Notes: generated by a model from the sequence alone, not told the origin. A stretch of 64,000 nucleotides of DNA from a virus (IMGVR_UViG_3300037458_001730:32056-96055); one strand, 5' to 3'. Shown: positions 2,839 through 64,000, numbered from the stretch's first letter. Translations and numbers: made by a program.

Positions 2839-3777
2839 TTAAATAGTTGGAGAATATACTTTTTTCCTATCTGAATCAAAAAAATACTCTTTTTTCGCAA
2901 GTTCAACATAAAATCTTCCTTCATCTGGGTTTACACCACCTCTTTCTGGTGGATATGAAATAATATCGTGCGGCAATTTACATGTAGCGTCTTTAAATAC
3001 TTCTTTTCTTGTAATTCTCATTTCGTAGCCAAGTCTTTGAATTGTGAAAACTTTTAGATCATTATAAACCATTCTCAAAAAGAATTCGTAATAATGACTT
3101 ATTTTCATGCTTTCTTTCATTGGCAAATATTTTCCATTCTCGTCAGTCTCACAATAGTTAGATATGTCTTCAATTTTGTAAACTGCCCCAAGAGGATTTA
3201 CACAATTATATTTCATGAGAAGGTTAATATCTGTTTTTCCAGCTTCTTCAGACTGACCTTCAGCCCAGCAAGCTTCGTTTATTAAACCAGTAAAAGATCC
3301 ATTTACTGAATTTTTTACAATAGGTAAAAATATAGAAATTTCTGGTTTTTCTTTCATGAACACATCTGCCGTGTTAAACCACTTTAAAGAAAAACTGTCT
3401 TCTGCTTCTGCAAAAGAAATGCATTCATAGCCACTTTCTTTTGCTAAATTAAAGGTTGTGTTGAAAATTTTTGAGAAGTTCATATCAACCTCAGATTCGA
3501 TAATCTTAAAATTTAATTTTTTAACAGCGTTTATTCTTTCTTCTATAATCTCTTCTTTTTCATTTTTTTTAATCAATGTGTAATAAGGAGCTTCAGCCAA
3601 AACTTTTATTTTTTCATTTTGCTCATTGGTTAAACCTCTTGTGTATATTACAACATCAACTGGTTTTGTTTGTTCACAAATGCTGTATAAACATTCTGCC
3701 AAAGATTTATCTGTTGGCATTTCGTATATGTAAATTGCTAGTAAGCAATTACTTTGTTTTGATTCCTTCAAGTTCAT
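2839..3777 (-). CDS. GT2-like glycosyltransferase (degenerate GT-A fold)
   Basis: LAECLYSICEQT..VDVVI N-terminus, EAED in place of DxDD, YEFFLRM motif; translationally coupled to a GT4 gene. Confidence 0.6.
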   Translation of the reverse strand: MNLKESKQSNCLLAIYIYEMPTDKSLAECLYSICEQTKPVDVVIYTRGLTNEQNEKIKVLAEAPYYTLIKKNEKEEIIEERINAVKKLNFKIIESEVDMNFSKIFNTTFNLAKESGYECISFAEAEDSFSLKWFNTADVFMKEKPEISIFLPIVKNSVNGSFTGLINEACWAEGQSEEAGKTDINLLMKYNCVNPLGAVYKIEDISNYCETDENGKYLPMKESMKISHYYEFFLRMVYNDLKVFTIQRLGYEMRITRKEVFKDATCKLPHDIISYPPERGGVNPDEGRFYVELAKKEYFFDSDRKKVYSPTI

Positions 3778-4969
3778 TTATTCTTTCGTTTTTATATTGG
3801 TTAATAATATTTAAAAATTCATTTTTTTCATTTTCTTCAGCGTATGGGGTTAAAGTTTTTTCATATGATTTTTGAACATCTTCGTGATCCAATTCTCCAG
3901 CCAACCATTTATCTATTGCCACACCTAATGTTTCAGCTGTTTGAAATATGTCGCCATTATTTGTCCAAAAACCATTTTCATTGCTAATGTACTCTTTGCC
4001 TCCAAAAGCTGCCCATCCAACAACATGAGTTCCGCAAGCCATAGCCTCAAGTGGTAAAGTGCCGAAACCAGCAATATCATCTGTATATAAAAGAAATGCA
4101 CAAGATGCCAATCTTTCTGCAAACTGCTCTCTATCCATGTTGGCAAGCTCAACAAATCTAATCCACTTAAGATGTGGATAAAATGCATAAAAATTTCTTA
4201 TTATGCTATGAGTTTTCATTTTGTTTTCTGATCCTCTGCTACCAGTAAAACCAACAATAGGTAATTTATCAGACATTTTTGGTGGTACTTTAAATATCTT
4301 TCTGTTTATACCTTGTTTGAAATTTTTTATTTTCAAACCTGGCATTACCGAATTTAGATATTCGGTTATAGCATCAGAAACACTAATTGCGTCGTATATT
4401 CCGAAATGTTGCCATTTTTCTGCTGGTCTCATTGCCAAAAGAACATAGAACCAACTTTGTGCAAACACAATTCTTTTACAAGAAACTTGCATGGTTTTTT
4501 GCATAACATTTGGAAACCCTTCTGGAATAATCAAAAAATCTTCTGGGTTAACATTTAAAGGTTCACATTTAAATGGTTTATAATCTCCTTTTTCATTTTT
4601 TTCTCCGACAATAAAAATATCTTTATCGCCAAGAGGAATAAAATCAACACCCTCCATGCTAAAGTCTAACCATGTTGGATTAAACTTTTGATATACGTGA
4701 ACTTCTTTCTTTTGTTTTACTGACTCTTCATAAGAAGCTTTTTCGTCAATCATTGGTTCGTATACAATTTTTGCATTAAACCCGTTGTCTTTTAAAAGTT
4801 TTGCGCTTTTTAATAACACTCCCACGCCACCACTTGGTGAATTCATTGAGGGTGAATAATAGTAAATTTTAAAATCATTATTCTCTATTTTCTTTATTGC
4901 CGAGTCAATGATTTCATTGTGGCTAGCTGGAGCTTCAACTGCAGTTACTTCAGTGATTTCTTTTTCCAT
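3749..4969 (-). CDS. GT4-like (GT-B) glycosyltransferase
   Basis: SGGVGV N-terminal loop and GFGTLPLEAMACGTHVV signature. Confidence 0.8.
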   Translation of the reverse strand: MEKEITEVTAVEAPASHNEIIDSAIKKIENNDFKIYYYSPSMNSPSGGVGVLLKSAKLLKDNGFNAKIVYEPMIDEKASYEESVKQKKEVHVYQKFNPTWLDFSMEGVDFIPLGDKDIFIVGEKNEKGDYKPFKCEPLNVNPEDFLIIPEGFPNVMQKTMQVSCKRIVFAQSWFYVLLAMRPAEKWQHFGIYDAISVSDAITEYLNSVMPGLKIKNFKQGINRKIFKVPPKMSDKLPIVGFTGSRGSENKMKTHSIIRNFYAFYPHLKWIRFVELANMDREQFAERLASCAFLLYTDDIAGFGTLPLEAMACGTHVVGWAAFGGKEYISNENGFWTNNGDIFQTAETLGVAIDKWLAGELDHEDVQKSYEKTLTPYAEENEKNEFLNIINQYKNERINELEGIKTK

Positions 4970-5038
4970 TGTTTATGATGTGTTTAATTTTAATAAATAT
5001 ATGTAGCTAACATGGTAAAGTAAATAGTTTTTTTAAAA

Positions 5039-5070
5039 AAAAAGTCAAAGAAACACTTCTTTGACTTTTT
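5039..5070. terminator. Intrinsic terminator (A/T-flanked hairpin)
   Basis: AAAAAGTCAAAGAA-acac-TTCTTTGACTTTTT directly downstream of the vWA gene. Confidence 0.8.
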
Positions 5071-5091
5071 CACTTTTATTTGACTTTTTAC

Positions 5092-6072: not shown

Positions 6073-6115
6073 TTTAGTATATTTTTTTGATGTTTTTTGT
6101 TTGTATAAAACAAAA

Positions 6116-6880: not shown

Positions 6881-6940
6881 ATTTTTTATTTAAAATTGTT
6901 TGGTATCTTCTTCAATATGATTATTTATGTGTGCATAAAT

Positions 6941-8582: not shown

Positions 8583-9608
8583 CTACCTAGACAACTCGTG
8601 AGAAACCATTATTTCTACAAGTTCTTTAAATTTGACTTTTGGCTGCCAACCAAGAATTGTTTTTGCCTTAGAAGCGTCTCCAAGCAAAAGATCTACTTCT
8701 GATGGTCTAAAATATTTAGGATCTACCTCTACAAGTAATTTACCACTATGTAGATCATAACCCTTTTCTTCCACACCAGAACCGACCCAATTTATTTTGT
8801 AACCTATTATTTCGCAAGTTGTTTCGACTAATTCTCTAACTGAATGAGTTTCATTTGTCGCAAGAACAAAATCTTCTGGAACATCTCTTTGCAGCATTAA
8901 CCACATCCCTTCTACATAATCTTTTGCGTAACCCCAATCTCTTTTTGAGTCTAAATTACCAATGCTTAAAATATCTCTTTTTCCCTGTTTTATTTCGACT
9001 AAATTATTTATCACTTTTTTTGTAACAAATGTGCCGCCTCTTCTAGGGCTTTCATGGTTAAACAATATACCATTACACGCAAATATATCATATGCTTCTC
9101 TATAGTTTTTTACAGCCCAATAACCATATATTTTAGCTACACCATATGGGCTTCTTGGGTGAAAAACAGATTTTTCAGTATATCCAGTTTCTGGCATGTT
9201 ATAACTCATACCGCCATACAACTCTGATGTTGATGCCTGGTAAAATCTAGATGTTGGACAATGAATTCGCATTGCTTCTAAAATCGTAAGTGTTCCCAAA
9301 GCGTCAACCATACCAGTGTAATATGGCTGTTCAAATGAAACTTTAACATGCGATTGAGCTGCCAAATTATAAATTTCATCTGGTTTTATTGTGGCAATTA
9401 AATTTGTTGTACTTGCTGGGTCAGTAACATCTCCATAGTGCAAAGTCAGCTTGTTGAAAATGTGGTCTATTCTTTCAGTATTAAAGCTGCTAGATCTTCT
9501 TATTACACCGTGCACCTCATAACCTTTTTCTAAAAGAAGTTCTGCTAAATATGAACCATCTTGTCCAGTTATACCAAAACAAATTGCTATTTTTTTATCC
9601 TTTTTCAT
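8583..9608 (-). CDS. gmd: GDP-mannose 4,6-dehydratase
   Basis: [58 protein letters not shown]. Confidence 0.97.
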
Positions 9609-10807
9609 TGAGCCTCCTCTATTGCACTAAGTACGCAGTTGCACATGTGATCTATTTCTTCTCTTGTTAAATTGGGGTGATTAGGTATATACATACCACA
9701 ATCATCAATTCTTGAAACAGTCTCTAAAGATACTCTACCAAAACTTTTTACAAAAAATGGTTGAGTCCCCATAGATCCACATATTAAAGGTCTGCACTCA
9801 ACGTTGTTTTCTATTAGTTTCTTTACAACTCTTTCTTTTTCTTCTTTTGTTTCAGTTATTATTGGAATACAAAAACTAGCAGTGAAACTATCTTCTTCTT
9901 CAACTGGGAACCAAATATAAGGAGATAAACGATTTTTAAAAATTTGAAAATTTTTGTTTCTTTGTTCTATCATCGCATCAACTTTTTCAAGTTGTCTTAA
10001 TCCAATTACAGCTTGAAGATCTGTTGATCTAACATTGAAACCAGGGACATAGAAAGTATATAACGCAGAAAAATCATCTATACCCCATTTTTCTCGTAAT
10101 TCTATTTGTTTCGTTGAGTCTAAATCTCTATCCCACCCATGACTTCTTAGTTGTTTTAACATGTCATAAACTTCTTTATCGTTTGTTGAGATCATACCAC
10201 CTTCAATAGTGCTCATAGTATGACCAAAATAAGTAGAGAAACTAGACATTAAGCCAAAATTTCCAAGTTTTTTACCTTTGTACATTGTTCCTTGGGACTC
10301 ACAATTATCTTCAAGTAGTATAACTCCGTATTTTTTACAAAGATTTACAACTTCATCCATATTTGGAGATAAGCCAAGAACTGATACCAATATCATAGCT
10401 GCTGGTTGTTCATTTATAAAAATATACTCCAAATGTTCAAGATCAACAGATAAATTGCTTAAATTACAATCTACTATAAGTGGTTGAAATCCGAGTTGAA
10501 CGACTGGTGCTAGATCTGTAGCCCAAGCTAATGATGGCACAACTACTTTGCCATTTCTTAATTTATAAAGCTCTATTATAGCATAAAGCATTAAAAGGTT
10601 AGCAGATGATCCAGAATTAACAAAAACAGAATATTTACAACCAAGCCATTTTGACCAGGCTTCTTCAAACTCTATTGTTTTTTCTCCTTTTGTTAAGCGC
10701 GGGTAAGTTTTTAACCACTTAATTAAATGATCAATATCGCTTTTGTCTATAGTATCTTTTACGAGGGTAATTCGCTCGCGAACCTGATTTAAATCTTTGT
10801 TTTTCAT
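9605..10807 (-). CDS. colD: PLP-dependent GDP-4-keto-6-deoxymannose 3-dehydratase (ColD-like, DegT fold)
   Basis: VNSGSSANL and LLEDNCES motifs. [15 protein letters not shown] has His where aminotransferases have the Schiff-base Lys, and there is no Cys cluster loop (RSHGWDRDL). Adjacent to gmd. Confidence 0.75.
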
Positions 10808-10860
10808 TACCTTTATTATTTATAAAAACATAAACAAAAAAAGTTTTAAAACAAAGTTAA

Positions 10861-11802
10861 TTATATGAATTCTATCTTGTTTTCATCAAAAAAGTTTGTA
10901 TGTTCTTTTTTTGGTCCAATATTTTTTAAAAAATCAAACAATTCTGAATCGCTAAAAAAATGTTCTGTGATAAAATTTTTATATTTTTTTCTGGCTTCGA
11001 CAAGGGTGGTTCCATTGTATCCAAACTCTGGGTTGTCTATCCAACCTCCACCACCTAAAAAAATATAATTAGCCTCTGTTAAGCAATTTACATTTGCGCC
11101 ACCAGAATCTGCTATTGATATCACGCAATTTGATGCTAGATAAAAAGAAAGCATTTTACTAAAACTAATAGCTGGATTAAATATTTCAAAATAAGATTCT
11201 TTTGGAAATATAAACCCTGGGGGGTTTATTGTTAGATTAACAACAAAGTAACCAGCTCTTATTAAACCGATAATTGTGTTGTGATAAAGGTTGTTTCTGT
11301 GTAGTATCTTATTTAAATTTCTGCCATTTATAGCAATAATTTTTTTGTTTTCTACATTAATTGAATTTAAAAACGATACACACTCTTCGTAGTCAGATTT
11401 TTTTGGATTAATAAAAACCAGATCGTTTTCTAATAATCTTTTAGTGCTGTGACTAAACATGTATTTATACACGTGATCACCACCTCTAAATTTAGCTACA
11501 TCTTCATCTCCCAAAAACTCTATTTCAACATCTTTTGACGCTCTTTTTTTACCTATTTTTTCCATGTTATAGAATATGTTTCTATCCAAGGAGATATCTT
11601 CTATTAAATTAGTACCTGATTTAGATGTATAATTTTGCACATATATTTTATCATAATCTGGAAGCATAATATCAAAGTTTTCAAATGTAGATGTGTATAA
11701 TTCAAAATCTTTGTTTTGTTTTTTAAAATTATATGCATCTAAACTTGAAGCGTATATGTAATTGAATTCATCTATGTTTGTTGTTATAAATCTTTTTTTC
11801 AT
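10861..11802 (-). CDS. Putative GT-B glycosyltransferase (GT9-like)
   Basis: IIAINGRN and CVISIADSGGAN resemble the GT9 DSG motif; lies in the glycan cluster. Confidence 0.4.
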   Translation of the reverse strand: MKKRFITTNIDEFNYIYASSLDAYNFKKQNKDFELYTSTFENFDIMLPDYDKIYVQNYTSKSGTNLIEDISLDRNIFYNMEKIGKKRASKDVEIEFLGDEDVAKFRGGDHVYKYMFSHSTKRLLENDLVFINPKKSDYEECVSFLNSINVENKKIIAINGRNLNKILHRNNLYHNTIIGLIRAGYFVVNLTINPPGFIFPKESYFEIFNPAISFSKMLSFYLASNCVISIADSGGANVNCLTEANYIFLGGGGWIDNPEFGYNGTTLVEARKKYKNFITEHFFSDSELFDFLKNIGPKKEHTNFFDENKIEFI

Positions 11803-11821
11803 TTATTGTTTAATAAAATAG

Positions 11822-12763
11822 TTAATCTGTTAAAATATTTTTTTCAACTATGTTTTTATAAACTTTTTTTATACCATCATACAAATTTGTTGGTTTAAAG
11901 CTTGGTATAGTCGACTTTAATAATTCAATTGAAACGTCTTTTCTGTGTTGCCCATTTGGGTATGAACTATCAAAATGAACAGATAAGTGCTCAGCGTCGC
12001 AAGCTTTTAATGCTATGCTAGCCATTTCTTTTATAGTTAAATTTTCTTCTGTTGCAACATTCATGTTTGTATATATATCATTATCTATGCAATATTTTAT
12101 TATATGCGCTAAATCATCAGAGTGCATAAATTGTCTTAATGGTGTACCGTCCCCAAAAAGAACAATTCCCTTTTCATTGTTTTTTAGTGAATAGTGAATT
12201 TTTTTTATAAGAGCAGCTATAAAATGACTGTTATCTCCATATTTGTCAAATTCACCATATAAATTACATGGCGTTAAATATTGGTATTGAGTCCCATATT
12301 GTTTGTTATATGTGTCTGTTTGTACGGCCAGGCATCTTTTTGCATAACCATACGAAAAATTAGTTGGTGTTGGTGGTCCATTGTGCAATTGGCTTTCCTT
12401 CATGGGGTATAAATTTTCCACATCTGGATAAATACAAGTGCTTAACATGCTGATAAATCTTTTTACATTATTTTTATAAGCATAATCCATCAACAATGTA
12501 TTCATCAAAATATTATCTGTAAAATATTCTGCTGGTTTTTTGATGTTGTCTATTATGCCACCTACCTTAGCCGCCAAATGAATAATTGCATCTGGGTTAT
12601 GTTTTTCAAAAAGAAGTTTTACACTTGACTCTTTTGTTAAATCAAAATCTTTTGAAGATATGTATACAGCGTCTGGCATGATCTTTTTTAAAGACCTCCC
12701 CACCATACCTGAACCACCAGTGACTAATATTTTATTATATTTCATAATTAAATTTTTATCCAA
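11822..12763 (-). CDS. fcl: GDP-L-fucose/colitose synthase (epimerase-reductase)
   Basis: TGGSGMVG, HLAAKVGGI, STCIYP (catalytic Cys), YGYAK, PCNLYG, SHFIAAL (catalytic His), GDGTPLRQF. The true start may be an internal Met (MKYNKILV). Confidence 0.9.
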   Translation of the reverse strand: MDKNLIMKYNKILVTGGSGMVGRSLKKIMPDAVYISSKDFDLTKESSVKLLFEKHNPDAIIHLAAKVGGIIDNIKKPAEYFTDNILMNTLLMDYAYKNNVKRFISMLSTCIYPDVENLYPMKESQLHNGPPTPTNFSYGYAKRCLAVQTDTYNKQYGTQYQYLTPCNLYGEFDKYGDNSHFIAALIKKIHYSLKNNEKGIVLFGDGTPLRQFMHSDDLAHIIKYCIDNDIYTNMNVATEENLTIKEMASIALKACDAEHLSVHFDSSYPNGQHRKDVSIELLKSTIPSFKPTNLYDGIKKVYKNIVEKNILTD

Positions 12764-13539
12764 TTTTCACAATACAAATCATTTGTGTTATAATGATCAT
12801 AAGCAGAACCAAACCACTTTGCTGGAGCTACAACTTTCTTTTGGTCATTTTTATTAAGCCAAGCACCCCACCAACTAAATGTTGAGTTGCATATTATATT
12901 ATTTTTACATTTGCTCATCAAAAAAAGTTCTTCATAGTCTTTGTTTTCATCTATAAAAACAAACTTTTCTGGTAAATCTGGAAAGTTTTGTTTGCACCAA
13001 TATATATCATCTGAAAAAATCAAGAAAACAGAATCTTGATCCATGTGTTTAATTGCTTTCATGTAATAATTCATGCTTTGAATCGGGTGGTGGTCTTGAA
13101 ACTTTAAATAATCTCCTCTTCTGACATGAATAGAACAAGTGTTTTTATTTAACAAGTCAATATATTTTTTTGAAATACTTTCAGCTAATTCTTGTGGATA
13201 AGAAAAAATTTCCAAAACCTCTTTTCTGTGTTCTTTAAAATATTTTTCACTTTGAAAATATCCATTTAAACATATATTAGATTCAACATTTGGTATTTCG
13301 GTGTAATTAAACCCAGATTCATTAAACAAAATTTGACTTTCCATATTGTTTCTAGAAACGAAATTTATTTTAGAAAAAACGCTTCCCTTGTAATCACTAG
13401 CGTGTTTGTGGACAACAACAGAATCATCATATGAATATATTGCTTCTTTACCATATTTTAAAGAATAAGATAATGTACAAGCTATTTGAAACATCATGTT
13501 ACCTAAACCGCCTATTAACCTAGTTGTTACTTTTTTCAT
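12748..13539 (-). CDS. GT11 alpha-1,2-fucosyl/colitosyltransferase
   Basis: GGLGNMMFQ, GYFQSEKYF, SIHVRRGDY, IFSDD, NSTFSWWGAWL. Confidence 0.93.
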   Translation of the reverse strand: MKKVTTRLIGGLGNMMFQIACTLSYSLKYGKEAIYSYDDSVVVHKHASDYKGSVFSKINFVSRNNMESQILFNESGFNYTEIPNVESNICLNGYFQSEKYFKEHRKEVLEIFSYPQELAESISKKYIDLLNKNTCSIHVRRGDYLKFQDHHPIQSMNYYMKAIKHMDQDSVFLIFSDDIYWCKQNFPDLPEKFVFIDENKDYEELFLMSKCKNNIICNSTFSWWGAWLNKNDQKKVVAPAKWFGSAYDHYNTNDLYCENWIKI

Positions 13540-13542
13540 TTT

Positions 13543-14424: not shown

Positions 14425-14779
14425 TTTCTTTTTTTTCAGATTTTTGAAAACCGTTATAAAGTTTTGGGTTTTCTACATCTGGGTTAAACTTTCCATTGCA
14501 CATGTTTACAATAGTTTTGTCAATTGCCTTCACAAGCATTGGTCTTTTTTGTTTAAATGTTATATCAGCTTTTCTTTTTAAAGTCAGCATAGTTTCTGGA
14601 TTTTGCTCTAAACTCATAGCATCTTCTAAATACCACAATCTTATGTGTACTACTATTAATTTATCTATTAATTCAGAAAAAGAATCACTATGAATTTCAT
14701 CATATTCTGGAAATAAATTTTTATCTAATATTTCTTTTACCTTTTCTTTTATATAGTTGTCTAATTGCTCTCCTATCAT
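14417..14779 (-). CDS. DUF4254-like helical protein
   Basis: ELIDKLIVVHIRLWYLED...KR..LVKAID pattern. Confidence 0.6.
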   Translation of the reverse strand: MIGEQLDNYIKEKVKEILDKNLFPEYDEIHSDSFSELIDKLIVVHIRLWYLEDAMSLEQNPETMLTLKRKADITFKQKRPMLVKAIDKTIVNMCNGKFNPDVENPKLYNGFQKSEKKENE

Positions 14780-14786
14780 GTGTTTT

Positions 14787-18005: not shown

Positions 18006-18008
18006 TTT

Positions 18009-23598: not shown

Positions 23599-23600
23599 TG

Positions 23601-51900: not shown

Positions 51901-53598
51901 ATGTCTGGTACTTATTTTAATCCATTACACAGAGTTTTTCTAAATCTTTCAGGTGGAACTGTGACTGGAAACACTTTGTTTACGCAAAGTGTTTCTGCTG
52001 CAACCATTTACTCTGGTGCAACTGATCTTTATGATATTTTTGCTCCCTTTGGAGGTGGTGGTGGTGGTGGAAATACATATTTATCGCCAACACATATTGG
52101 TTTCGGAAGTTCAATTTCTGGTTTAACAGGTTCAACTGGTTTAACTTATTTAAATAATACATTAACAGTTAGTGGCGATGGAAGTTCAAACCAAATTCTT
52201 GTAAGAGTTGGGAATAATTTTTACATACAGGATAATATTTCTGGTTTTTCTGACAGAAGTATAATGGCTGTTGCTGGTATGGTATTTTCAAATGCTGCAT
52301 CTACACCAAACATTTCTGCAACGTATCTTGAATTTACAGCTGGTGGACATTTTTATGTCAACACACCAAATATGTACTTTAACGACACAAAATTGTATCT
52401 TGGTACATATCCACATGTCAATACGCATAATTTTGAAGTCGCTGGTATAACAAAATTAAGTGCTTTAACAGCAAACACAATAGTTGTTGGACAAGCACAA
52501 AATAGTGGAGCAGTATTTGAGGTACGACAGGGGGCTAGCAATTTTAATGTTGGTTTAGATACTCAATATAGTGCTTATACAGCTATTCATTTTGGGTCAG
52601 CTAGAACAGATACAAATTTTGCTCTTAGGGGCGATGCTACAAATGCAATGCAGCTTAACGGTGGAACAAGACTTGATTTAGGTGTTGGTGGATTTGGCAA
52701 AATATTAGTTTATTCCGATCATAACAGGATTAATATTCCAACTCATATTGGAGATCCATTTCACACAATAACACCAACAGCTTATTTGGATTTATACTCA
52801 GCCTCAACCGCAATAGCTTCTTTGAGAATTAGAAGTGGTACAACCGTGTCTTCACCTAATGATGGTGATATATGGAATGAGGGAACACACTTATATGGAA
52901 AAATTGGTGGAGTTGTAAGACAGTTAGATAACGACAATGGAAGTGGTACCACTTTTATGGGACCAACTCAAATTGCGTTTGGTTCGTCAGTGTCTGGTTT
53001 GACTGGAAGTACTGGTTTTTATTACAATAACAATTCAGCTGGTGGTTATTCTGTTGTTGGAAATTATTTAATTGCTGGTACACCAAACGCAGGTCTTCCA
53101 TTTTATCAGGAAATTTATTCTCCATATTCATTAAAAGTTGGTGCAACGAATTTAACAAATAACACTTGGTATTATTATGATACTCAAAGTAATATTCACA
53201 CAGCGCCAGGTGGACATATTTTTGATTCTGTTTTAAGAGCAAACTCTCTTTCTGCAACATCTTTAACTGCAACCACAGCAAGGGTTAATATAATAACAGC
53301 TACAACTATTTCCGCGAACACAATTCAATCTGATTCGTTAAGAGGTTCTACTGAAAGAATGGTGCAGGCTGATACTGGTGGAACAATACACGCTGTTCAA
53401 GAAATTGTGTCTGGTATTGTAACAGATCCAACAGCTATTGCGCTTTTAACCACTTTTTCTAATTGGAATATGGCTGGAGTTTACACAGGCGCTACAATTA
53501 CAAATACATATCAGGGACAATTTTATGGAGACACAGGAGACACTTATGTTTATTTGGCGCTGGCCGACAATTATTTTGCAAGAATACCTAGAGTTTAA
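51901..53598 (+). CDS. Fibre-like virion protein (Gly/Ser/Thr-rich, modular)
   Basis: Repeated FGS..SGLTGS modules and a DGDIWN module shared with 58507; late motif at 51872-51879. Confidence 0.7.
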   Translation: MSGTYFNPLHRVFLNLSGGTVTGNTLFTQSVSAATIYSGATDLYDIFAPFGGGGGGGNTYLSPTHIGFGSSISGLTGSTGLTYLNNTLTVSGDGSSNQILVRVGNNFYIQDNISGFSDRSIMAVAGMVFSNAASTPNISATYLEFTAGGHFYVNTPNMYFNDTKLYLGTYPHVNTHNFEVAGITKLSALTANTIVVGQAQNSGAVFEVRQGASNFNVGLDTQYSAYTAIHFGSARTDTNFALRGDATNAMQLNGGTRLDLGVGGFGKILVYSDHNRINIPTHIGDPFHTITPTAYLDLYSASTAIASLRIRSGTTVSSPNDGDIWNEGTHLYGKIGGVVRQLDNDNGSGTTFMGPTQIAFGSSVSGLTGSTGFYYNNNSAGGYSVVGNYLIAGTPNAGLPFYQEIYSPYSLKVGATNLTNNTWYYYDTQSNIHTAPGGHIFDSVLRANSLSATSLTATTARVNIITATTISANTIQSDSLRGSTERMVQADTGGTIHAVQEIVSGIVTDPTAIALLTTFSNWNMAGVYTGATITNTYQGQFYGDTGDTYVYLALADNYFARIPRV

Positions 53599-53601: not shown

Positions 53602-56600
53602 ATGGCGACAAATGCAGAATTATCAAACCTAACCAATGGTCTTGTTTCATATTGGAAATTAGATGGCAACAGCAATGATGCAATAGGAACTAACCATGGA
53701 GTTGATGCAAATATATCTTATAGTGTTGGTGGAAAAATAGTTTCTGGAGCAAGTTTTAACGGAGTTTCAAGCAATGTTGTTATATCTAGTTCTAGTACAT
53801 TAACTTCAATAACAACAGCCGTAACACTTTCTTGTTGGGTTTATCCAAGATCAACATCTAGTTGTATGCTTGCGATTAAATATTTTGATGGTTCTGGAAA
53901 TGGTGAATATTTTCTTTCCGTTTCCAGCGGATATTTTAGAGCAGCTTCAAATGGTGGTAATGGATCTGTGTTTTCTTTGTCACCTTTTAGTCTTAATACA
54001 TGGTATCATTTGACTCTTGTGTTTATTGAAAACTCGTTTCTTGATTTTTTTGTTAACGGGGTAAGTCAAGGGGTAGACTACACCCCTGGAGTTATTAATT
54101 CATCTGAATTTCCTTTAGAGTTTGGAAATACTGTGGTGCCAGGGATACTAGGTTTTGCTTTTGATGGAGTTTTAGATGAGGTTGGTTTATGGAATAGAAA
54201 TTTAACAGCGCAAGAAATATCTATTATTTACAATAATGGTAACGGTCTTTCTTTCCCATTTCAAAACTTGATTGTCCCAAGAAGGGTTTTAAGATATAAC
54301 AACACAAGCCTTTCAAATGGTTTGTTGTCTTACTGGAAATTAGACGGGGACTCTAGTGATTCTTTGGGTTATGGAATTAATAATGGTTCTGGAACTGGTA
54401 TTACATATTCAATTGGAAAAGTGGGTTATGCAGCAAATTTTGATGGAAGTACAAGTAAAATTTTTGTGCCAGATTCTGCTGTGTTTTCATATGCTTCAAG
54501 TGATTTTACGATTTCGGCTTGGTTTAAAAAAGCTGTAAATGGAACCAGAATGTTTATTTATGGGCAAAGCGATAATGTTGGATCTAACATTTCCTGTTCT
54601 GTGCTTGTGAGTTTAGAGGCTTCAAATTATATAAGAGTTTTTATAGCCTCGCAAACAGATCCAGACAGTACATATATTGAACTTATCTCTTCTTATGCAA
54701 TAACAGACTTTAATTGGCATCATTTCATCGTTCAAAGAGACGGAACAACATTAAGAACATTTATAGATGGTGTTGCTGATAACACATCTGCTATTGTTTG
54801 GGCGATAAATAACAGCTCAAACTATTTTGCAATTGGTGCGGCTGGAGAATATGCGCTTGAAAAATGGAATGGTTCAATAGATGAAGTGGCGATTTGGCAC
54901 AGAAAATTGAGTGTTTCTGAAATTTTATCTTTATACAATAACGGCAATGGAAATCCAACATTTTCCAAAAACCAATTGGTTGCACATTGGAAGTTGGATC
55001 AAAATGCACTGGATTCTGCTGGTAATTTTGGTGTGGACACAAATATATCTTATGTAACAGGAAAAATAAATGGCGGCGCAAGCTTTAATGGTTTAACATC
55101 TTATATTACCGTTAATAATAATATTTGGTCTGAAGAATTAACACTCTCTTGTTGGGTTAAAGTTAATGACTACGGAACTTCTAATCCAGCTCTAGCAGGA
55201 AAACAAATAATTTTTAAAGCGCCTGATACTGGCTTTGTGCAGGATTATACTTTATCTGTTGGCGATAATCCTGGTGGCAAATATGTTGCTTTTGTTTTTA
55301 GCAATAATAACCCAGACTATCATTCTGTTGGTTATTTTTTAACTGGTAATTTTTTTGAATGGATGCATATTGTAGCTACAAGAGCTGCAGGAACTTCAAA
55401 AATTTATGTTAACGGAGAATTGGTTGTTACAGGTACATATTCTTTTACACCAGTCAACAATGGGAATTTGTTGTATCTTGGTAATAACCCAGTAGCAGGA
55501 ATTCAAAGATTTGATGGGTTATTAGATGAAGTTGGTATTTGGAATAGAGCAATTTCACAAACAGAGGTAACTCAACTTTATAATTTTACATCTGGCAATC
55601 AATATCCATTTACAAGACAATTGTCGAAAAATTTACCAGTATTAAAATCAACACTTGAAAATGGTATTGCAGTTTATTGGAAATTGGATGGAAATGCAAA
55701 CGATGCTTTAAATTTGAATCATGGAACTGGAGAAACTGTTACATATATTGATGGTATATCTAATAAGTGTGCTTATTTTAATGGGTCAAGTAGTAGAATT
55801 TTAATTGATGATTCTAGTATTTTTACATTTGGCGCAAACGATTTTACAGTAAGTTGTTGGATTAAAACTAATACATCTGGCGTTTTATGGATTTCTGCAC
55901 ACGAAGATGCTAGTGGTGGAAATTCAAATTGTGGAATTTTTTCTTATCTAGATTCTGGTAGATATGGCTTTGGTTTTTGCTATGGATCATCAGCAATTAG
56001 CGCTGTTGGTAGTCAAGTATTGAATGATAATAATTGGCATCATGTTGTATCAGTTAGAAGTGGTAATACAATCTCTAGCTATGTTGATGGAGTTTATGAA
56101 ACTGGTTTTACATCTTCTCAATCCGTTAATAATTCTACTGCAAAGTTTGGTATTGGATCTCTTGGTGAATATGTTTTTAATAAATTCCTCGGTTCAATTG
56201 ATGAATATGGGATTTGGCATAAGGCTTTAACTGTTGATGAAATTGTAACTCTTTATAATAATAGACGCGGACTTGCTTACCCTTTTCATAAAACTATAAA
56301 TTCCTCAAATGAACAAGGTGTTGAAGAAGGCTTGATTGGTTATTGGAAGTTAAATGGGGACTCAAAAGATTGTGTTGGTTTAAATAACGGCATAGACACA
56401 GATGTATCTTATGTTGCAGGAAAAATTGGTCAAGGAGCAAGTTTTAATGGAAGCACATCTGATGTTGTTCTTGGAAGCATCATACCATTATCGCCAATAA
56501 AGGGTTCAGTGTCAATTTGGTGTTATCATGATAATTATAATCAAATAAAAAGACCATATTCTGATGCTGGTGGATATGCTTATTTTGAACAAGGTACTTT

Positions 56601-58440
56601 TGTTTCGGGTAGATTTTATTGGCTTATGTATGATGGGGCTTCTGGTGTTTCGGTTAGTGCACCATATGAATTAAACACCTGGATTCATTGGGTTGCTACA
56701 TGGGAAAACAATAACATTATAAAATTATACAAAAATGGTGTTTTGGTAGACACAAACAGTATAAGTCCTGCTTCTATAATATTAAATTTATCTTATGCTA
56801 ATCATTTTGGTAATTATGGTGGTGCTGGATTTTTTTCTGGAAAAATTGATGAGTTTGGAGTTTGGAATAGAGCTTTATCTCAAAATGAAGTTGGTAAGTT
56901 ATACAATTCTGGTATAGGCCTCACATATCCGTTTAATAGAAATGTTATTACAACGTTTAACGGACTTGTATCTTATCATAAATTTGAGAATAATTTGCTA
57001 GATTCTGTTGGAACTGCTCATGGGACCGATATTAATTTAGATTATCAATCTGGAAAAGTAAATCAAGGTATTTACCTTGATGGGTCTGCATATGTTGAAA
57101 ATGTTGGTACAGTATCCACATACTCATTTTTTCATAACACTGGAGTTTTTACAATTTCCTTTTGGGTAAAAATGGATAATTATACATCTGTTCCACAATA
57201 TTTTATGGGAAACACTCCTACAACAATTGAGAATGGGTTTTTTCTTGGTACCGATGTGGCTGGAAACTTAAGAATAGCGGTTATATACGGCGTAAGTTCA
57301 CAATATGTTATTTTACACACTGTAAACAGTTTTTTTACAGACAATAATTGGTATCACGTAGCGGTGGTTTCCAATGGTTCAAAGGTTCAATTTTATAGAA
57401 ATGGTCAACCATTTGGTGCTATTGGATCATGTTATCCCATAAATGTTGGAGATAGTTCAAGAAAATTAAGGTTTGGCGATATACAACCTGGTGGATATAG
57501 AATGACAGGAAAATTAGATGAAATTGGAATTTGGAATAGAGCTTTAACTTCAGATGAAATTTCTGTTTTGTGTAATAATGGCAATGGTTTGCAATATGAT
57601 AATTATGGAAAAATATCTACAACAAAAAGATTGCCTCTTGATAATTACCCTGGTGCTCTTGCTGGTTATTCTTTGAGAAAATTGAGAGACAGATATACTG
57701 GATCATGTGTAAGAATCAGAAGGTCAAGTGATAATGCTGAGCAAGATTTTGGTTTTGTAAATGATTATTTTGATACAGCTTCATTTGCGAATTTTGTTGG
57801 AAATGGGATTGGGTATATTAAAACCTGGTACGATCAAGGCTTAAATGGTCTTGATGTAACTCAGACAACAGATATATATCAACCATATATTCAACTTAAT
57901 ATGTTAAATGGAAAAGCTGTAGTTAGGTTTGTGCAAAAAACTTCAAATTCATTTTTGTCAAATTCAAACGCTTTGGTACAATCAGAAATGAGTGGAATAC
58001 TAAAAAAATCCTCTGTTTTTATGGCGTATAGGGAAAGTGGAGATGTAACATTTAGTACGCCAATTATATTTAATCACCCACCAAATAGTTATTTTTCTTA
58101 TTTGCATTTATGGGCGGGATATTTATATCAAAATTTTTCAGAAAGAACTGATGTTGGTTCAAGTCAAACACAGTCATTTGCTAATAATGTATCAAACTGG
58201 TCTTTGGTTTCATCGCTTTATAACACACACATTGATGGTTACATAAATGGTTCTTCGGTTGGAACACCAGTTTCAAGAATTAATAGTCAAATTACGATAA
58301 GTCAAATAAATATTGGGGGTGGAAGTCCATCGTATTGTTTGGATGGTCAGATATTAGAGTGTATTATTTACGCATCTGATAAAACCAATATTAGACCAGA
58401 AATAGAAAGAAATATAAATGATTATTATAAACTTTACTAA
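53602..58440 (+). CDS. Multi-LamG (concanavalin A-like) virion protein: six LamG repeats plus a C-terminal ConA-fold domain
   Basis: Six repeats of (L/I)xx(Y/H)(W/H)K(L/F)...W.H...NG...G.(L/I)DE..(I/L/V)W.(R/K).L, then AGYSLRKL...RIRRSSDNAEQDFGF...TWYDQ. Confidence 0.88.
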   Translation: MATNAELSNLTNGLVSYWKLDGNSNDAIGTNHGVDANISYSVGGKIVSGASFNGVSSNVVISSSSTLTSITTAVTLSCWVYPRSTSSCMLAIKYFDGSGNGEYFLSVSSGYFRAASNGGNGSVFSLSPFSLNTWYHLTLVFIENSFLDFFVNGVSQGVDYTPGVINSSEFPLEFGNTVVPGILGFAFDGVLDEVGLWNRNLTAQEISIIYNNGNGLSFPFQNLIVPRRVLRYNNTSLSNGLLSYWKLDGDSSDSLGYGINNGSGTGITYSIGKVGYAANFDGSTSKIFVPDSAVFSYASSDFTISAWFKKAVNGTRMFIYGQSDNVGSNISCSVLVSLEASNYIRVFIASQTDPDSTYIELISSYAITDFNWHHFIVQRDGTTLRTFIDGVADNTSAIVWAINNSSNYFAIGAAGEYALEKWNGSIDEVAIWHRKLSVSEILSLYNNGNGNPTFSKNQLVAHWKLDQNALDSAGNFGVDTNISYVTGKINGGASFNGLTSYITVNNNIWSEELTLSCWVKVNDYGTSNPALAGKQIIFKAPDTGFVQDYTLSVGDNPGGKYVAFVFSNNNPDYHSVGYFLTGNFFEWMHIVATRAAGTSKIYVNGELVVTGTYSFTPVNNGNLLYLGNNPVAGIQRFDGLLDEVGIWNRAISQTEVTQLYNFTSGNQYPFTRQLSKNLPVLKSTLENGIAVYWKLDGNANDALNLNHGTGETVTYIDGISNKCAYFNGSSSRILIDDSSIFTFGANDFTVSCWIKTNTSGVLWISAHEDASGGNSNCGIFSYLDSGRYGFGFCYGSSAISAVGSQVLNDNNWHHVVSVRSGNTISSYVDGVYETGFTSSQSVNNSTAKFGIGSLGEYVFNKFLGSIDEYGIWHKALTVDEIVTLYNNRRGLAYPFHKTINSSNEQGVEEGLIGYWKLNGDSKDCVGLNNGIDTDVSYVAGKIGQGASFNGSTSDVVLGSIIPLSPIKGSVSIWCYHDNYNQIKRPYSDAGGYAYFEQGTFVSGRFYWLMYDGASGVSVSAPYELNTWIHWVATWENNNIIKLYKNGVLVDTNSISPASIILNLSYANHFGNYGGAGFFSGKIDEFGVWNRALSQNEVGKLYNSGIGLTYPFNRNVITTFNGLVSYHKFENNLLDSVGTAHGTDINLDYQSGKVNQGIYLDGSAYVENVGTVSTYSFFHNTGVFTISFWVKMDNYTSVPQYFMGNTPTTIENGFFLGTDVAGNLRIAVIYGVSSQYVILHTVNSFFTDNNWYHVAVVSNGSKVQFYRNGQPFGAIGSCYPINVGDSSRKLRFGDIQPGGYRMTGKLDEIGIWNRALTSDEISVLCNNGNGLQYDNYGKISTTKRLPLDNYPGALAGYSLRKLRDRYTGSCVRIRRSSDNAEQDFGFVNDYFDTASFANFVGNGIGYIKTWYDQGLNGLDVTQTTDIYQPYIQLNMLNGKAVVRFVQKTSNSFLSNSNALVQSEMSGILKKSSVFMAYRESGDVTFSTPIIFNHPPNSYFSYLHLWAGYLYQNFSERTDVGSSQTQSFANNVSNWSLVSSLYNTHIDGYINGSSVGTPVSRINSQITISQINIGGGSPSYCLDGQILECIIYASDKTNIRPEIERNINDYYKLY

Positions 58441-58506: not shown

Positions 58507-60630
58507 ATGTCGTTTAATCCAAATATACCAGGTCATAAAATTTATGGAAACATAGAGTTAACTGGCGGTTCTATTTACGCAAGTTCTTTGTCTGGTGGAA
58601 CGATATATTCTGGGTCAACTCCATTAAATCAAATATTTGCAACAACTGGAAACACATTTTTACCAACAAATCAAATTGGGTTTGGAAGTGCTTTTTCTGG
58701 TTTATCAGGTTCAAGTGGATTTACTTATAATGATGTATCAAAAGTATTTGCTGTATCACCAACAACTTTCTCTTTTAGGGTTACAGATTGGATTGGTTAT
58801 GTTGGTGTTTATATGCAAGATAACGCCACAACATTAACACCATTTAATTATACATTAACAAGCGATGGTCCAAATACATATATTAACGCCCCATCTTCGC
58901 TTGGAGCAATAAAGTTTGTGGTTGGCGGAAATGCTTTAAGAGCAACAATTGACGATTTAATAACTTATGTTTATACTGGTTTTTATACCCATTCAGCAAG
59001 GACAAATTCTTTGTCCGCAGCAACTTTAACAGGCGGTTCAATAAATACACAATCAAACCAATTTGTTGTAAATGTTGGACAAGTAAATGATTCGATAAAA
59101 GTAAATTCAAATGGTTTAATTGAGTTCAACCCTAACAATTCTGTAACCAGAAATTATAATTATTTCAATACAGATTATTTAAGTAAACCTAGTGGCCAAA
59201 TTCTTTATTTCCTTGAAGAAAATTTATCATATAATCAAGGTTACATAACTTATGGTAGCAGTGTAGGTGGTGGTATATTTAATTGGTTGGGCGCTTTTTC
59301 TGCAGCAACTTTATCAGCTGAAACTGGAAATATTAGGAGCGGTCTAACAATTGGTCATGTTGATAATGGTAGAGCTTATGTTGGTACAAGCCCAGGTTCT
59401 CCAAATTTTAGAATAGTGGTTGAAAAACCTGGGTTTGGTTTGCATTTAAACACCAATTCAACTTATGGGTTGTACTTAGCAGATTCTGGTTCACAAACTT
59501 TTGTTGGTCAGTTTTCCTTATACAATTCAACACCATCACTTTCAACTCTTGCATTTGCAACTGCTGCTGGTTATGATTACGACACAAATGTAAGTCATAA
59601 ACCACTTTCTGCAATTAGTGTAAGTGCTGAAACAGCATTTATTCGTGGTGCTAATAGTTTATATAACTTTAGACATGGCAGTCTTTTGATGGGTCCAGAT
59701 TCTGGGGGTAATTATTTGTGGAGAGCTGATCAACCTAATGCTTTACCAATAATTGGTTTTGCAACTTATTTTGGAGGAACTACATACCCAGCTTGGTTTA
59801 GAAGTAATTCTGCTAGTTTTGGTAGCACAACGTTGCAATCTTTAAACGTAGGCGCATATGTAAATATTGCTGGCTCTGTTTCTAATAGAGCATCTTTAGA
59901 AATTGACTCTGGTTCAACTGTATCCAACCCTTATGATGGCGATATATGGAATGATGGTCAACATTTGTATGGAAAATTTGGTGGAGTTGTAAGACAATTA
60001 GATAATGACAATGGTAGCGGTACAACATTTGTTCAACCAAATCAAATAGCATATGGTTCATCTGGTTCAGGTGTAACATATTCTAGTGGTTTAACTTATT
60101 CTAATGGTGGTGTTACTATTACAAGTCCGTATACTTCTGTTTTAAGAGTTGTAGGTTCTGGAACAACTCAACCAATATTCTCAGTTCAGGGTTCACAGGG
60201 TGAACTGTTTTCTGTTACAGATGATTTAAGTGGTTCTTTATTTTCTGTAAACGATATTTCTGGTTTACCAATTGTAGAAGTGTTTTCTGATGGCACAACT
60301 TTAATGGGTGATTATCAAGCTCCAGGTTTATATACATCTAAAAACAAAACATTAACAGCTGGTACAAACACAATATATTTTATACCAACAAGTGCTTATA
60401 CTGGAGCATTTTTTGACTATACGGTTATTGGCACATCTGGTGCTAGAGCTGGAAGTATTATGTCTATATGGAGTGGTGTATCGGTTAATTACACAGAGGT
60501 AACAACAAATGATATAGGTCAAACAAGTGGTGTGACATTTACAATGTCTATAAGTGGTTCTTATGCTGTGCTTAACGCATCTGGATCAACAAGTGGTTGG
60601 ATAGTGAAAACAATAATAAGATCAATATAA
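58507..60630 (+). CDS. Fibre-like virion protein
   Basis: Shares modules with 51901; C-terminal GSQGELFSVTD.LSGSLFSVNDISGLP and GAFFDY..RAG domain; TATTTATA at 58474-58481. Confidence 0.7.
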   Translation: MSFNPNIPGHKIYGNIELTGGSIYASSLSGGTIYSGSTPLNQIFATTGNTFLPTNQIGFGSAFSGLSGSSGFTYNDVSKVFAVSPTTFSFRVTDWIGYVGVYMQDNATTLTPFNYTLTSDGPNTYINAPSSLGAIKFVVGGNALRATIDDLITYVYTGFYTHSARTNSLSAATLTGGSINTQSNQFVVNVGQVNDSIKVNSNGLIEFNPNNSVTRNYNYFNTDYLSKPSGQILYFLEENLSYNQGYITYGSSVGGGIFNWLGAFSAATLSAETGNIRSGLTIGHVDNGRAYVGTSPGSPNFRIVVEKPGFGLHLNTNSTYGLYLADSGSQTFVGQFSLYNSTPSLSTLAFATAAGYDYDTNVSHKPLSAISVSAETAFIRGANSLYNFRHGSLLMGPDSGGNYLWRADQPNALPIIGFATYFGGTTYPAWFRSNSASFGSTTLQSLNVGAYVNIAGSVSNRASLEIDSGSTVSNPYDGDIWNDGQHLYGKFGGVVRQLDNDNGSGTTFVQPNQIAYGSSGSGVTYSSGLTYSNGGVTITSPYTSVLRVVGSGTTQPIFSVQGSQGELFSVTDDLSGSLFSVNDISGLPIVEVFSDGTTLMGDYQAPGLYTSKNKTLTAGTNTIYFIPTSAYTGAFFDYTVIGTSGARAGSIMSIWSGVSVNYTEVTTNDIGQTSGVTFTMSISGSYAVLNASGSTSGWIVKTIIRSI

Positions 60631-60632
60631 AA

Positions 60633-62056: not shown

Positions 62057-62061
62057 ATAAT

Positions 62062-63372
62062 ATGGCAGGAAGAGTAGCATATATAGGTGGAATCATTACA
62101 AATGGATTAATTCTAAATTTAGATGCAGCGAAAGAAGATTCGTATCCAAAGCAGGGAGCAAATTGGAATGATATCTCTGGAAATAGAAACAGTGGAGTTT
62201 TAAATGGAACTGTTGTTTATAATAATTCAGATAAATCAATTGCGTTTGGGGCAAACGTGGGCGATTATATCACTCTTCCAAATGGTTTACTATATGGTGT
62301 ATCAGATTTTACAATAAATCAATGGATTAAATCGGATGGCGACACTACCCTCGACCAATATACAACATTTACTAATTACCCTGCAGGTAATTTACAGGTG
62401 TTATATGGAAAATACTTTATAGGTTTATATCTTGGTAATAATGAAGCATATTTAGGGGCAGCTCCATGGAACACTTTGCTTACAGAATTTAATACCAGAG
62501 CAAACATGATCACTGTTTTGAGATTTGGAACTACAACTCAAGTTTATTTAAATGGTCTTTTAGTTAAAACAGGTACCTCTAATGCTACAATAGGAACACA
62601 AAGCTCTGCTTTTAGAATTGGTGCAAATACTGATGGTGGTGAAAGATATAAGGGAAAAATTTATTCTACTCAAGTTTATAATCGCGCTTTGTCAGCAGCA
62701 GAAATTTTACAAAACTACAATACTTTAAAGGGTCGTTATGGATTAGCAACATTCCCTGCAAATTTATTAGCTTCACTAGTTTCAAGATGGAAGCTTGATG
62801 GCAATAGTTTAGATTCAGTGGGAACTAACAATGGAACGAACACTTCAATAACGTATGTACCAGGTACAAATTTTGAAGGTAAGGCTGCTGAATTTGATGG
62901 CGCTAATTCTTATATAAATGTTGCAGATAATACAAGTTTAAATTTTGGAACTGGTGATTTTACAGTATCAGCCTGGGTTTATCCTTATGTTGTTAATTAT
63001 GCTTTGGATAAAGCAGGTACGATTATAACCAAAGACTTTACAGCCTATGAATTTTCTGTATATGAAGGTCAAATTGCTGCTTATATAGGCGGATCTGGTA
63101 TTCTTGCTGGGTCAGTTTCTATAAATAATTGGTATCATGTTGTTTTGTTGAGAATCTCTGGTGTTGTTAAGATGTATATTAACGCAATTGAGGTGCATTC
63201 TTCTACTATAACAACTTCAGCATCTAGTGGATATGATTTTCAAATTGGGATAAGAGGTACCAATCCAACAAACAGCAAAATGAATGGAAGAATAGACGAT
63301 GTTTGTGTTTGGAAAAACAGGGGACTAAACGAAGAAGAGGTTTCACAACTTTATAAATACTATAATTCATAA
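62062..63372 (+). CDS. Tandem LamG-domain protein
   Basis: GLILNLDAA..SYP...YNRALSAAEILQNYN, then LVSRWKLDGNSLD...GRIDDVCVW. Confidence 0.85.
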   Translation: MAGRVAYIGGIITNGLILNLDAAKEDSYPKQGANWNDISGNRNSGVLNGTVVYNNSDKSIAFGANVGDYITLPNGLLYGVSDFTINQWIKSDGDTTLDQYTTFTNYPAGNLQVLYGKYFIGLYLGNNEAYLGAAPWNTLLTEFNTRANMITVLRFGTTTQVYLNGLLVKTGTSNATIGTQSSAFRIGANTDGGERYKGKIYSTQVYNRALSAAEILQNYNTLKGRYGLATFPANLLASLVSRWKLDGNSLDSVGTNNGTNTSITYVPGTNFEGKAAEFDGANSYINVADNTSLNFGTGDFTVSAWVYPYVVNYALDKAGTIITKDFTAYEFSVYEGQIAAYIGGSGILAGSVSINNWYHVVLLRISGVVKMYINAIEVHSSTITTSASSGYDFQIGIRGTNPTNSKMNGRIDDVCVWKNRGLNEEEVSQLYKYYNS

Positions 63373-63445
63373 ATCAGATTAAAACAAACAGTTTTAAAAT
63401 AAAATTTTAATATTTATTGATAACCTGGAAAGTGAAAGGTGAAAA

Positions 63446-64000
63446 ATGAATGAATTTAAGGTCAAAAATGGTCTCATTGTTAATGGGGATACAACATTAA
63501 ATGGTGTTGTATATTATAGTGGCGCACCATTAACTCAAATATTTGCAACAACTGGGTCGACATTTGTTCAACCAAATGAGGTTCTTTTTGGTTCAGGGAC
63601 ATCTGGTTTAACTGGTTCATCATCGCTCTCATTTGATAATCACGCCCTTTCAAATACGATTGGTAGATTAAATGTTGGTAATTCCACAAATAGAACTGGG
63701 CAAATAGATTTGTATAATTATACAACCCCAACTAATTACTTAAGGATTGAAGGTGGTGCTGATTCATATATAACACAATTTGGGGGTGGTGATATTTATT
63801 TTAGAAATTATTTAGGCAATCACTCGCTTGTATTACAAGTTAATAACACTGTTAGGGCTTTAAATTTTTCAGCCACCACACTTTCAGCTGGGACTTTATA
63901 TTCTGGAACAACCAATCTTTATAACATATTTGCAACACAAGGCGCATCTGGAGAGGCAAATACAGCGAGCAATGTGAACGGTGTTCCATTGGGAACAAGT
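63446..64000 (+). CDS. Fibre-like virion protein, partial (runs off the right edge)
   Basis: Not in the track. MNEFKVKNGLIVNGDTTLNGVVYYSGAPLTQIFATTGSTFVQPNEVLFGSGTSGLTGS... is open to the end; TATTTATT at 63411-63418. Confidence 0.8.
   Translation, partial: MNEFKVKNGLIVNGDTTLNGVVYYSGAPLTQIFATTGSTFVQPNEVLFGSGTSGLTGSSSLSFDNHALSNTIGRLNVGNSTNRTGQIDLYNYTTPTNYLRIEGGADSYITQFGGGDIYFRNYLGNHSLVLQVNNTVRALNFSATTLSAGTLYSGTTNLYNIFATQGASGEANTASNVNGVPLGTS

Follow-up and report, generated by a model that had tools for sequence, protein, structure and literature searches.

What does one short peptide pattern do when it recurs through the structural proteins of a phage whose DNA is also crowded with sugar genes? 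The question is raised by IMGVR_UViG_3300037458_001730:32056-96055, a stretch of 64,000 nucleotides (hereafter the window) that forms the final 64 kb of a 96-kb IMG/VR contig with a CheckV completeness of 29%. The pattern is [ST][GA]xT, that is, Ser or Thr, then Gly or Ala, then any residue, then Thr. An original prediction, made from the DNA alone, took it for a dedicated cytoplasmic sequon by which phage-encoded glycosyltransferases (GTs) coat the virion with a complex glycan. Our analysis showed that the motif is about fivefold above chance in the outward-facing proteins of the particle. We tentatively regard it as a recognition site under selection on exposed loops of outer virion proteins, most likely read by the phage's own soluble glycosyltransferases, and our confidence in this explanation stays somewhat below even.

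The counts for single proteins are given with expectations from 500 whole-protein shuffles. Three tail fibres on the plus strand are rich in the motif: a protein of 565 amino acids (51901..53598) has 22 sites where 3.05 are expected, a second of 707 amino acids (58507..60630) has 19 (3.27 expected), and a third, which ends at the contig end after 185 amino acids (63446..64000), has 5 (0.99 expected). The fibre at 51901, for which no Pfam family was matched, contains runs such as SGLTGSTGLT and has modules in common with the other two fibres, two of them being shared with the fibre at 58507; the fibre at 63446 is paralogous to both. The gp18-like tail sheath of 794 amino acids (46077..48461, plus strand) has 10 sites (2.14 expected), and the gp23-like major capsid protein (37861..39522, plus strand; Pfam Gp23, E-value 8.6e-73) has 4 (1.02 expected), all between residues 149 and 231 of 553 in a variable insertion, while the best Pfam Gp23 stretch spans residues 302-543. 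Three sites each were found in a neck protein (43066..44256, plus strand; 0.54 expected), identified originally as gp13, and in a small BppU_N-like tail protein of 121 amino acids (50368..50733, minus strand; 0.26 expected). The neck protein matched no Pfam family but has orthologues in the related genomes G002, G005, G006 and G010, and the Pfam match of the BppU_N-like protein is weak. The manual counts of the original prediction held up closely, with about 21 copies and about 3 expected in the first fibre, about 19 and 5 in the other two, 3 each in the BppU-like and neck proteins, and all 4 capsid copies in the variable insertion, outside the Pfam core.

Taken together, the 16 virion-module proteins of the window have 70 sites with 13.5 expected, and the maximum over 1000 shuffles was 28, whereas only 2 sites (5.7 expected) occur in the 36 enzymes and other non-virion proteins. 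This is the comparison of virion and non-virion proteins against shuffles that had been proposed, and it came out as foreseen. In the 32 kb upstream of the window, baseplate and fibre proteins have 57 sites with 13.3 expected. The tube protein (51250-51738) has 0 sites. A protein of 1612 amino acids with six LamG domains (53602..58440, plus strand; Laminin_G_3, E-value 1.3e-131) has 5 sites with 2.8 expected, and there are three smaller LamG proteins within 60597-63372 (plus strand), among the fibre genes. The four LamG proteins summed have 5 sites with 5.1 expected, which is the chance level although they are beta-rich, and they are an internal negative control. That neither the enzymes nor the LamG repeats would be enriched had also been noticed from the sequence.

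The enrichment was kept when residues were shuffled only inside blocks of 10, 20 or 40 residues (28, 25 and 25 sites, with 125 observed), and it is therefore not an artefact of composition. In an unbiased scan of every word of the type abc, ab.c, a.bc and similar, SG.T, SA.T, TG.T and TA.T took ranks 1, 2, 4 and 7 by enrichment among the ab.c words. Permuted or reversed patterns gave 1.0-1.5x, except for T[GA]x[ST] at 2.5x, which in part overlaps the motif itself. Gly and Ala are equally enriched at position 2 (5.2x and 5.1x), Ser in place of Thr at position 4 reaches only 1.25x, and [NQ], [DN] or other residues ahead of [GA]xT stay near 1x. About half of the sites have hydrophobic residues at -1 and +4, and Ser is frequent at +5. 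Across six genomes, the hydrophobic-flanked form of the motif is enriched 8-15x, with [DN][GA]xT at 0.6-1.4x, [ST][GA]x[VI] at approximately 1.0x and [ST][GA]xS at 1.3-2.2x; the protein sets for these figures were picked by the motif itself, which inflates the motif ratios but leaves the contrasts inside the same sets valid. Hydroxyls are needed at the motif, unlike what a simple turn-plus-strand motif would predict.

The codons used at the motif match the background usage of the same genes, with Ser encoded by both TCN and AGY, which places the cause at the protein level, and a cause at the level of DNA was rejected on these grounds. Shared ancestry explains little of the distribution as well. 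The 16 enriched proteins of the genome form 14 groups that are unrelated by BLAST, with only the three fibres related to one another, and a similar 13-residue context was found elsewhere for 19 of the 125 sites, while 106 contexts are unique. Fibre sites are irregularly spaced, and most sites are isolated, with only short runs of the kind seen in the fibre at 51901. A structural repeat of the fibres, which had been named at the outset as something that could explain the motif, does not account for it, given the 14 unrelated families and the mere 19 shared contexts.

For the structural setting we relied on an AlphaFold (AF2) sheath model based on 29 sequences, with a predicted local distance difference test (pLDDT) score of 78.6, which is the one model examined for this purpose. 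Its best solved match is T4 gp18, whose extra domains face outward. The Pfam sheath domains lie at residues 511-784, while nine sites lie at 102-463 and one at 754, in keeping with the earlier estimate that about 9 of 10 copies fall in the inserted region. Nine of the ten sites fall in the outer insertion domains and not in the conserved core at the C-terminus. At nine of the ten, the first motif residue is in coil in the model; five sites run from loop to strand, with x-T opening the strand, three are in loops, one is in a hairpin with a two-residue turn, and one caps a short helix.

The window (GC content of approximately 30%) carries T4-type head and tail genes by Pfam, namely a prohead protease, gp23, the sheath and a gp19 tube, as well as fibre-region proteins rich in LamG. 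The closest cultured relatives of its capsid protein are those of Flavobacterium phage immuto and Microcystis phage Mel-JY01, at approximately 44% identity, and no fibre homologues were found among cultured phages. The source is an uncultured jumbo T4-like phage, and its host probably belongs to the phylum Bacteroidota. We delimited the phage family by sheath homologues in IMG/VR; its complete members are 290-372 kb long, and two relatives, G002 (372 kb) and G005 (322 kb, with terminal repeats), were analysed in full. Full-length sheath homologues have 4-13 sites with 1.8-3.3 expected, mostly 8-13 among those at 51-92% identity and 5-9 in the clade at 37-40%. Nearly all of these sites align in the insertion region, where several columns are common to 22-33 of approximately 45 sequences and many others are lineage-specific. 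The shared columns show Ser or Thr at position 1, Gly or Ala at position 2, nearly anything at position 3, and at position 4 Thr, replaced in some sequences by Val, Ile or Ser. In the sheath, sites turn over while their number is kept.

The two relatives show the same excess, with 10 of 408 proteins significantly enriched in G002 (117 sites, 23.5 expected) and 9 of 378 in G005 (114 sites, 17.3 expected), mostly in tail, baseplate and fibre modules; the motif is conserved across this family of 290-372-kb phages. Other phages gave a different result. In 22 structural proteins of T4, including fibres and sheath, there are 26 sites with 24.8 expected and no enrichment (gp18 has 2 sites with 1.6 expected, gp23 has 1 with 0.8). 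Phage immuto, which has two GT2 genes, shows a weak excess (48 sites, 32 expected) that comes mainly from two fibre proteins, and the more distant phage G027 has no motif enrichment in its baseplate proteins. The enrichment is specific to this phage lineage.

What might read such a motif? The sugar genes of the window lie in an island on the minus strand, from 2 to 24538, with a variable part at 8583..24233 (minus strand) whose members are all predicted to be soluble. By Pfam, the island encodes a GDP-mannose 4,6-dehydratase (GMD), a DegT aminotransferase, four NAD-epimerase/reductase paralogues and a carbamoyltransferase, along with a GT11, a GT10-like protein, a GT2+GT10 fusion, two GT2 proteins, a GT4 and several open reading frames (ORFs) without a family. 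The GT2 genes encode 249-312 amino acids and have no TPR match by Pfam. There are eight genes with transferase-family support in the window, and Pfam itself supports those at 3749, 12748, 18883, 20515 (two domains), 22263 and 29411, with 17202 supported weakly. The original prediction of GDP-deoxysugar synthesis and a carbamoyltransferase is borne out, while its estimate of about 11 glycosyltransferase-like genes is confirmed only in part, eight having family support. A hydrophobic stretch of 19 residues, as in a signal or membrane segment, was found in none of the 60 window ORFs, so the window encodes no flippase, polymerase or polyprenyl-phosphate transferase.

Three of the enzymes deserve particular attention. 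The GT4 enzyme at 3749..4969 (minus strand; Pfam Glycos_transf_1) has 925 relatives, the top 120 of them at 59% identity or more, and is syntenic in G002 and G005. A profile of this protein and two orthologues found AmGGT (8xsg) as the closest solved relative (E-value 4.7e-16 over approximately 255 residues), and we consider it a candidate chain-extending enzyme. Adjoining it in the same orientation is a GT-A (GT2-like) enzyme at 2839..3777 (minus strand), which has no Pfam match of its own; its homologues match PF00535 weakly, its language-model look-alikes are viral GT2 clusters, and its orthologue in G005 is at 75635-76468. The third, a GT4-fold transferase of 449 amino acids at 29411..30760 (plus strand; Pfam GT1 C-terminal match, phrog_7162), has orthologues in relatives including G002 and G005, and its family is found beside the baseplate gene gp6 in many distant relatives, with further members in phi92-like coliphages. 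Its AF2 model resembles the retaining GT4 enzymes MshA, GlgM, PglA and BshA, and the protein O-GlcNAc transferase SdgB is the rank 26 match rather than the best. We rejected this fold as a clue to the acceptor, because it is a generic retaining GT4 fold that does not indicate one. The whole sugar island is syntenic in G002. In the more distant G005 only a core is found, consisting of 29411 and the gene string 6116 / 3749 (GT4) / 2839 (GT2-like) / 1850, and among the transferases only the small core of 3749, 2839 and 29411 is conserved family-wide. The exact product of 3749-4969 (minus strand) is also on record on four contigs, the longest of 190 kb, which indicates that a longer assembly of the same phage exists in public data.

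A second feature shared by the structural genes and the GT4 gene is found in their upstream regions. Most structural genes, and 3749 too, have the heptamer TATTTAT, frequently in the form cTATTTATaa, at a distance of 15-35 nt upstream (-30 for 3749). It precedes the starts at 35594, 37861, 42069, 42756, 45228, 50733 (minus strand), 51738 (minus strand), 51901, 58507, 63446, 4969 (minus strand), 1460 (minus strand) and others, was not found upstream of the main sugar island, and looks like a late promoter. The start at 33426 (minus strand) is preceded by TAtaTTTG, a Bacteroidota-type -7 box, instead of TATTTAT. A sigma-70 region-2-like protein of 318 amino acids (1850..2806, minus strand) is encoded in one string with 3749 and 2839; among its look-alikes by language model are sigma-factor clusters of viruses and Bacillota (PF04542; score 0.93-0.98). 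It stands beside the GT4/GT2 pair in G000, G002 and G005 and near baseplate genes in G027. This gene had been counted among the island genes without a family; it resembles a sigma factor, is probably not a transferase, and is a candidate late sigma factor.

If the motif and the transferases belong together, they could be expected to occur together. Seven complete or near-complete relatives (G001-G005, G033 and G035) all have GT2 genes, and in G002 and G005 both GT2 genes and motif are present; as every complete relative has both, their co-occurrence cannot separate them. G006 (222 kb) and G010 gave no GT2, GT1 or epimerase matches, and the motif is still enriched in them. We were able to join G006 to G023, two IMG/VR contigs from different samples, through an overlap of 12,369 bases at 99.96% identity. 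The join gives 318 kb, which shows that the CheckV estimate of 87% for G006 is too high. The joined sequence is without gp6, gp25, the sigma-like gene, the von Willebrand A (VWA) protein and half of the 64 genes that G002 and G005 have in common, and since it is without such essential genes, its lack of transferases proves nothing. Two other fragments, G032 and G029 (39% and 20% complete), have no transferase even at the positions syntenic to the G005 transferase core. The sigma-like gene, which adjoins that core in three divergent genomes (G002, G005 and G027), is missing from all three fragments. Across 80 gp6 loci, motif enrichment within 10 kb had no clear relation to the presence of a 29411-type gene, but this is a poor measure because the motif is never present in the inner baseplate proteins close to gp6. 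The G006 end (L052:20871-22736) is a gene for a fibre that contains Gly-x-y runs resembling collagen (SGSSGANG, AGTSGVDG), and at least eight contigs of the G006 clade break within approximately 2 kb of the same point in it. Extension from this end failed, as all contigs break in that collagen-like gene.

There are some further genes of note in the window. Two paralogues lie in the structural module at 39622-41106 and 48584-50371 (both plus strand), one with a DUF7487 and Mom-family domain and the other with a ROS/MucR-like zinc-finger match, and the pair may point to DNA modification. Two proteins with von Willebrand A domains are encoded at 31117-33426 and 5092-6150 (both minus strand), the larger of which (769 amino acids, 31117-33426) is conserved family-wide from G002 to G005. 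Within the sugar island, a protein of 521 amino acids (6941-8506, minus strand) matches phrog_1745 ('DNA transfer protein') with an E-value of 1.8e-146, has no Pfam match and is conserved in G002.

In the mechanism that we propose, the pattern hydrophobic-[Ser/Thr]-[Gly/Ala]-x-Thr-hydrophobic would be kept by selection on fibres, peripheral baseplate proteins, the outer domains of the sheath, the insertion domain of the capsid protein and the neck. Its reader would be a soluble glycosyltransferase of the phage that modifies virion proteins in the cytoplasm, during or after their folding. The family-conserved core of 3749 (GT4), 2839 (GT2-like) and 29411 (GT4-fold) would start and extend the glycan, and the lineage-variable island (GDP-deoxyhexose synthesis, GT2, GT10, GT11 and carbamoyltransferase) would finish it, giving each lineage a coat of its own. 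We hold this full picture, a virion-wide glycosylation code read in the cytoplasm by the conserved GT4/GT2 enzymes with the variable island finishing the glycan, as a working proposal that may well need revision. The soluble island without an exporter supports transferases as the readers, as does 3749, which is conserved, related to the Agt family and preceded by TATTTAT like the structural genes. The original prediction is supported in part: the motif is real, specific and virion-limited, concentrates in outer domains of sheath and capsid, shows no enrichment in T4 and accompanies a soluble island. The link of the motif to the transferases is something that we infer, as are the action of the enzymes on proteins, their reading of the motif and the hydroxyl that would bear the sugar. 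Several observations weigh against this explanation. AmGGT, the nearest solved relative of 3749, acts on oligosaccharides and not on glycopeptides, and no protein-initiating O-transferase was recognised among the window enzymes. Unlike the motif, the large GDP-sugar/GT2/GT10/GT11 part of the island is not conserved in the family, and it is without TATTTAT. The LamG proteins, which are encoded among the fibre genes and are probably virion proteins, show no enrichment. The motif is kept in fragments in which a transferase was not detected (G006+G023, 318 kb; G032, 125 kb; G029, 72 kb). The structural setting is also regular, with hydrophobic residues at -1 and +4 and a strand opened by x-T in half of the sheath sites, and conserved sheath sites that have been lost often show Val or Ile in place of Thr.

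Some of these points would fit a motif that is structural and unmodified, in which a Ser/Thr-Gly/Ala turn is followed by an exposed, strand-opening Thr that serves folding, solubility or a hydrophilic surface in this lineage. We think this somewhat less likely, and it is the alternative that we take most seriously: the hydrophobic flanks, the passage from coil to strand at five of ten sheath sites (with one helix cap and one hairpin turn), the replacement of Thr by Val or Ile at lost sites and the enrichment on contigs without a detected transferase are all consistent with it. Yet Asx, the usual equivalent of Ser/Thr in turns, is not enriched at position 1, nor Val/Ile at position 4; T4 proteins of the same architecture and the LamG beta-sandwiches of the same phage show no enrichment; and the motif spans 14 unrelated families, in loops, hairpin and helix cap alike. 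These same results, the lack of Asx or Val/Ile equivalents, the two controls and the variety of folds, weaken any generic structural reading, and a universal preference should not vary five-fold among phage lineages. A less probable alternative is that something else acts on the motif in trans, such as a kinase, an acyl- or carbamoyl-transferase, an assembly chaperone or a decoration protein, and that the island serves a different acceptor, for example phage DNA or glycans of the host envelope. In favour of this, the variable island has no tie to the motif and is without the late-type promoter motif, and the two Mom-family/DUF7487 proteins hint at DNA modification. T4-like cyanophages, too, carry large sugar clusters of unknown role. 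Viral transferases that place glycans on DNA and transferases of temperate phages that change host serotype are known (reviewed in PMC12619734). On the other hand, no kinase or alternative candidate reader turned up in the Pfam scans of the window, eight or more transferases with deoxysugar and carbamoyl chemistry far exceed known DNA glycosylation, there is no membrane protein in the window to pass a glycan to the envelope, and both conserved GT4 enzymes adjoin structural modules. It is very improbable that the motif is a by-product of shared fibre modules or of low-complexity sequence rich in Ser, Thr and Gly. The three fibres do share modules, and 19 of the 125 sites have a similar context elsewhere, but shuffles in 10-residue blocks give 28 sites rather than 125, the other 106 contexts are unique, permuted patterns of the same composition stay at approximately 1x, and there is no relationship between the fibres and the proteins of sheath, capsid, neck and baseplate.

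If the glycosylation reading is correct, [ST][GA]xT would be the first defined acceptor sequon for phage-encoded protein glycosylation, with sites that are predictable from sequence alone, and the outer surface of these aquatic jumbo phages, a large and widespread family, would be sugar-coated at positions that can be read from their genes. This would bear on host recognition, on escape from the defences of hosts and grazers, and on particle stability, and it would help to explain the big sugar-gene clusters of so many large phages. A short portable tag with soluble enzymes could also be of use for glyco-engineering in the bacterial cytoplasm. Even without a sugar, strong selection that keeps a four-residue word in 14 unrelated virion proteins of one lineage indicates a reader as yet unknown.

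Several known systems invite comparison. In Che8-type mycobacteriophages, glycans are reported on the C-termini of capsid and tail-tube subunits (Freeman et al. 2023, as cited in PMC12619734). The likeness is that soluble, phage-encoded transferases, for which there are eight supported genes here, would decorate virion proteins in the host cytoplasm. The differences are that the candidate sites here are internal loops spread over many outer proteins (residues 149-231 of 553 in the capsid protein and none in the tube) and that the host phylum is another one. SgtA of Clostridioides difficile is a soluble transferase that sugars Thr in short Gly-x-Thr units of the surface fibre protein BclA3 (PMC7157674). 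[GA]-x-T is part of the motif here, with short runs such as SGLTGSTGLT in the fibres, but a Ser or Thr is needed before the Gly or Ala, the sites are mostly isolated rather than arranged in collagen-like tandem repeats, and no GT2-TPR enzyme was found in the window by Pfam. In the NGT/Agt system of Actinobacillus, Agt (alpha-1,6-glucosyltransferase) enzymes extend protein-linked glucose on adhesins in the cytoplasm, while the Agt homologue AmGGT (PDB 8XSG/8XSH) prefers free oligosaccharides and does not accept glycopeptides (PMC12159676). An Agt-like GT4 is present here in the form of 3749, but the Actinobacillus system starts with a GT41 N-transferase acting on Asn-x-Ser/Thr, and no GT41-type Pfam match was found in the 60 window ORFs.

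Two comparisons lie closer to the phage itself. The general O-glycosylation of Bacteroidota takes place in the periplasm at the sequon D-[ST]-[AILVMT]. It resembles the present case in the probable host phylum and in its short motif centred on Ser or Thr, and differs from it in that the enriched word here is [ST][GA]xT and that no membrane or export signal was seen in the phage proteins. The moraphages are freshwater jumbo phages with predicted Bacteroidota hosts, four core glycosyltransferase orthologue groups, T4-like gp6, gp25, gp19, sheath, gp13 and gp23, and a sigma factor, as described in 2025 (PMC12619734). A difference is that no motif is reported for them there. The phage described here has the same T4-like core genes, a sigma-like gene and core transferases, and going by these descriptions, the moraphages may be the same lineage as its family or a sister lineage of it.

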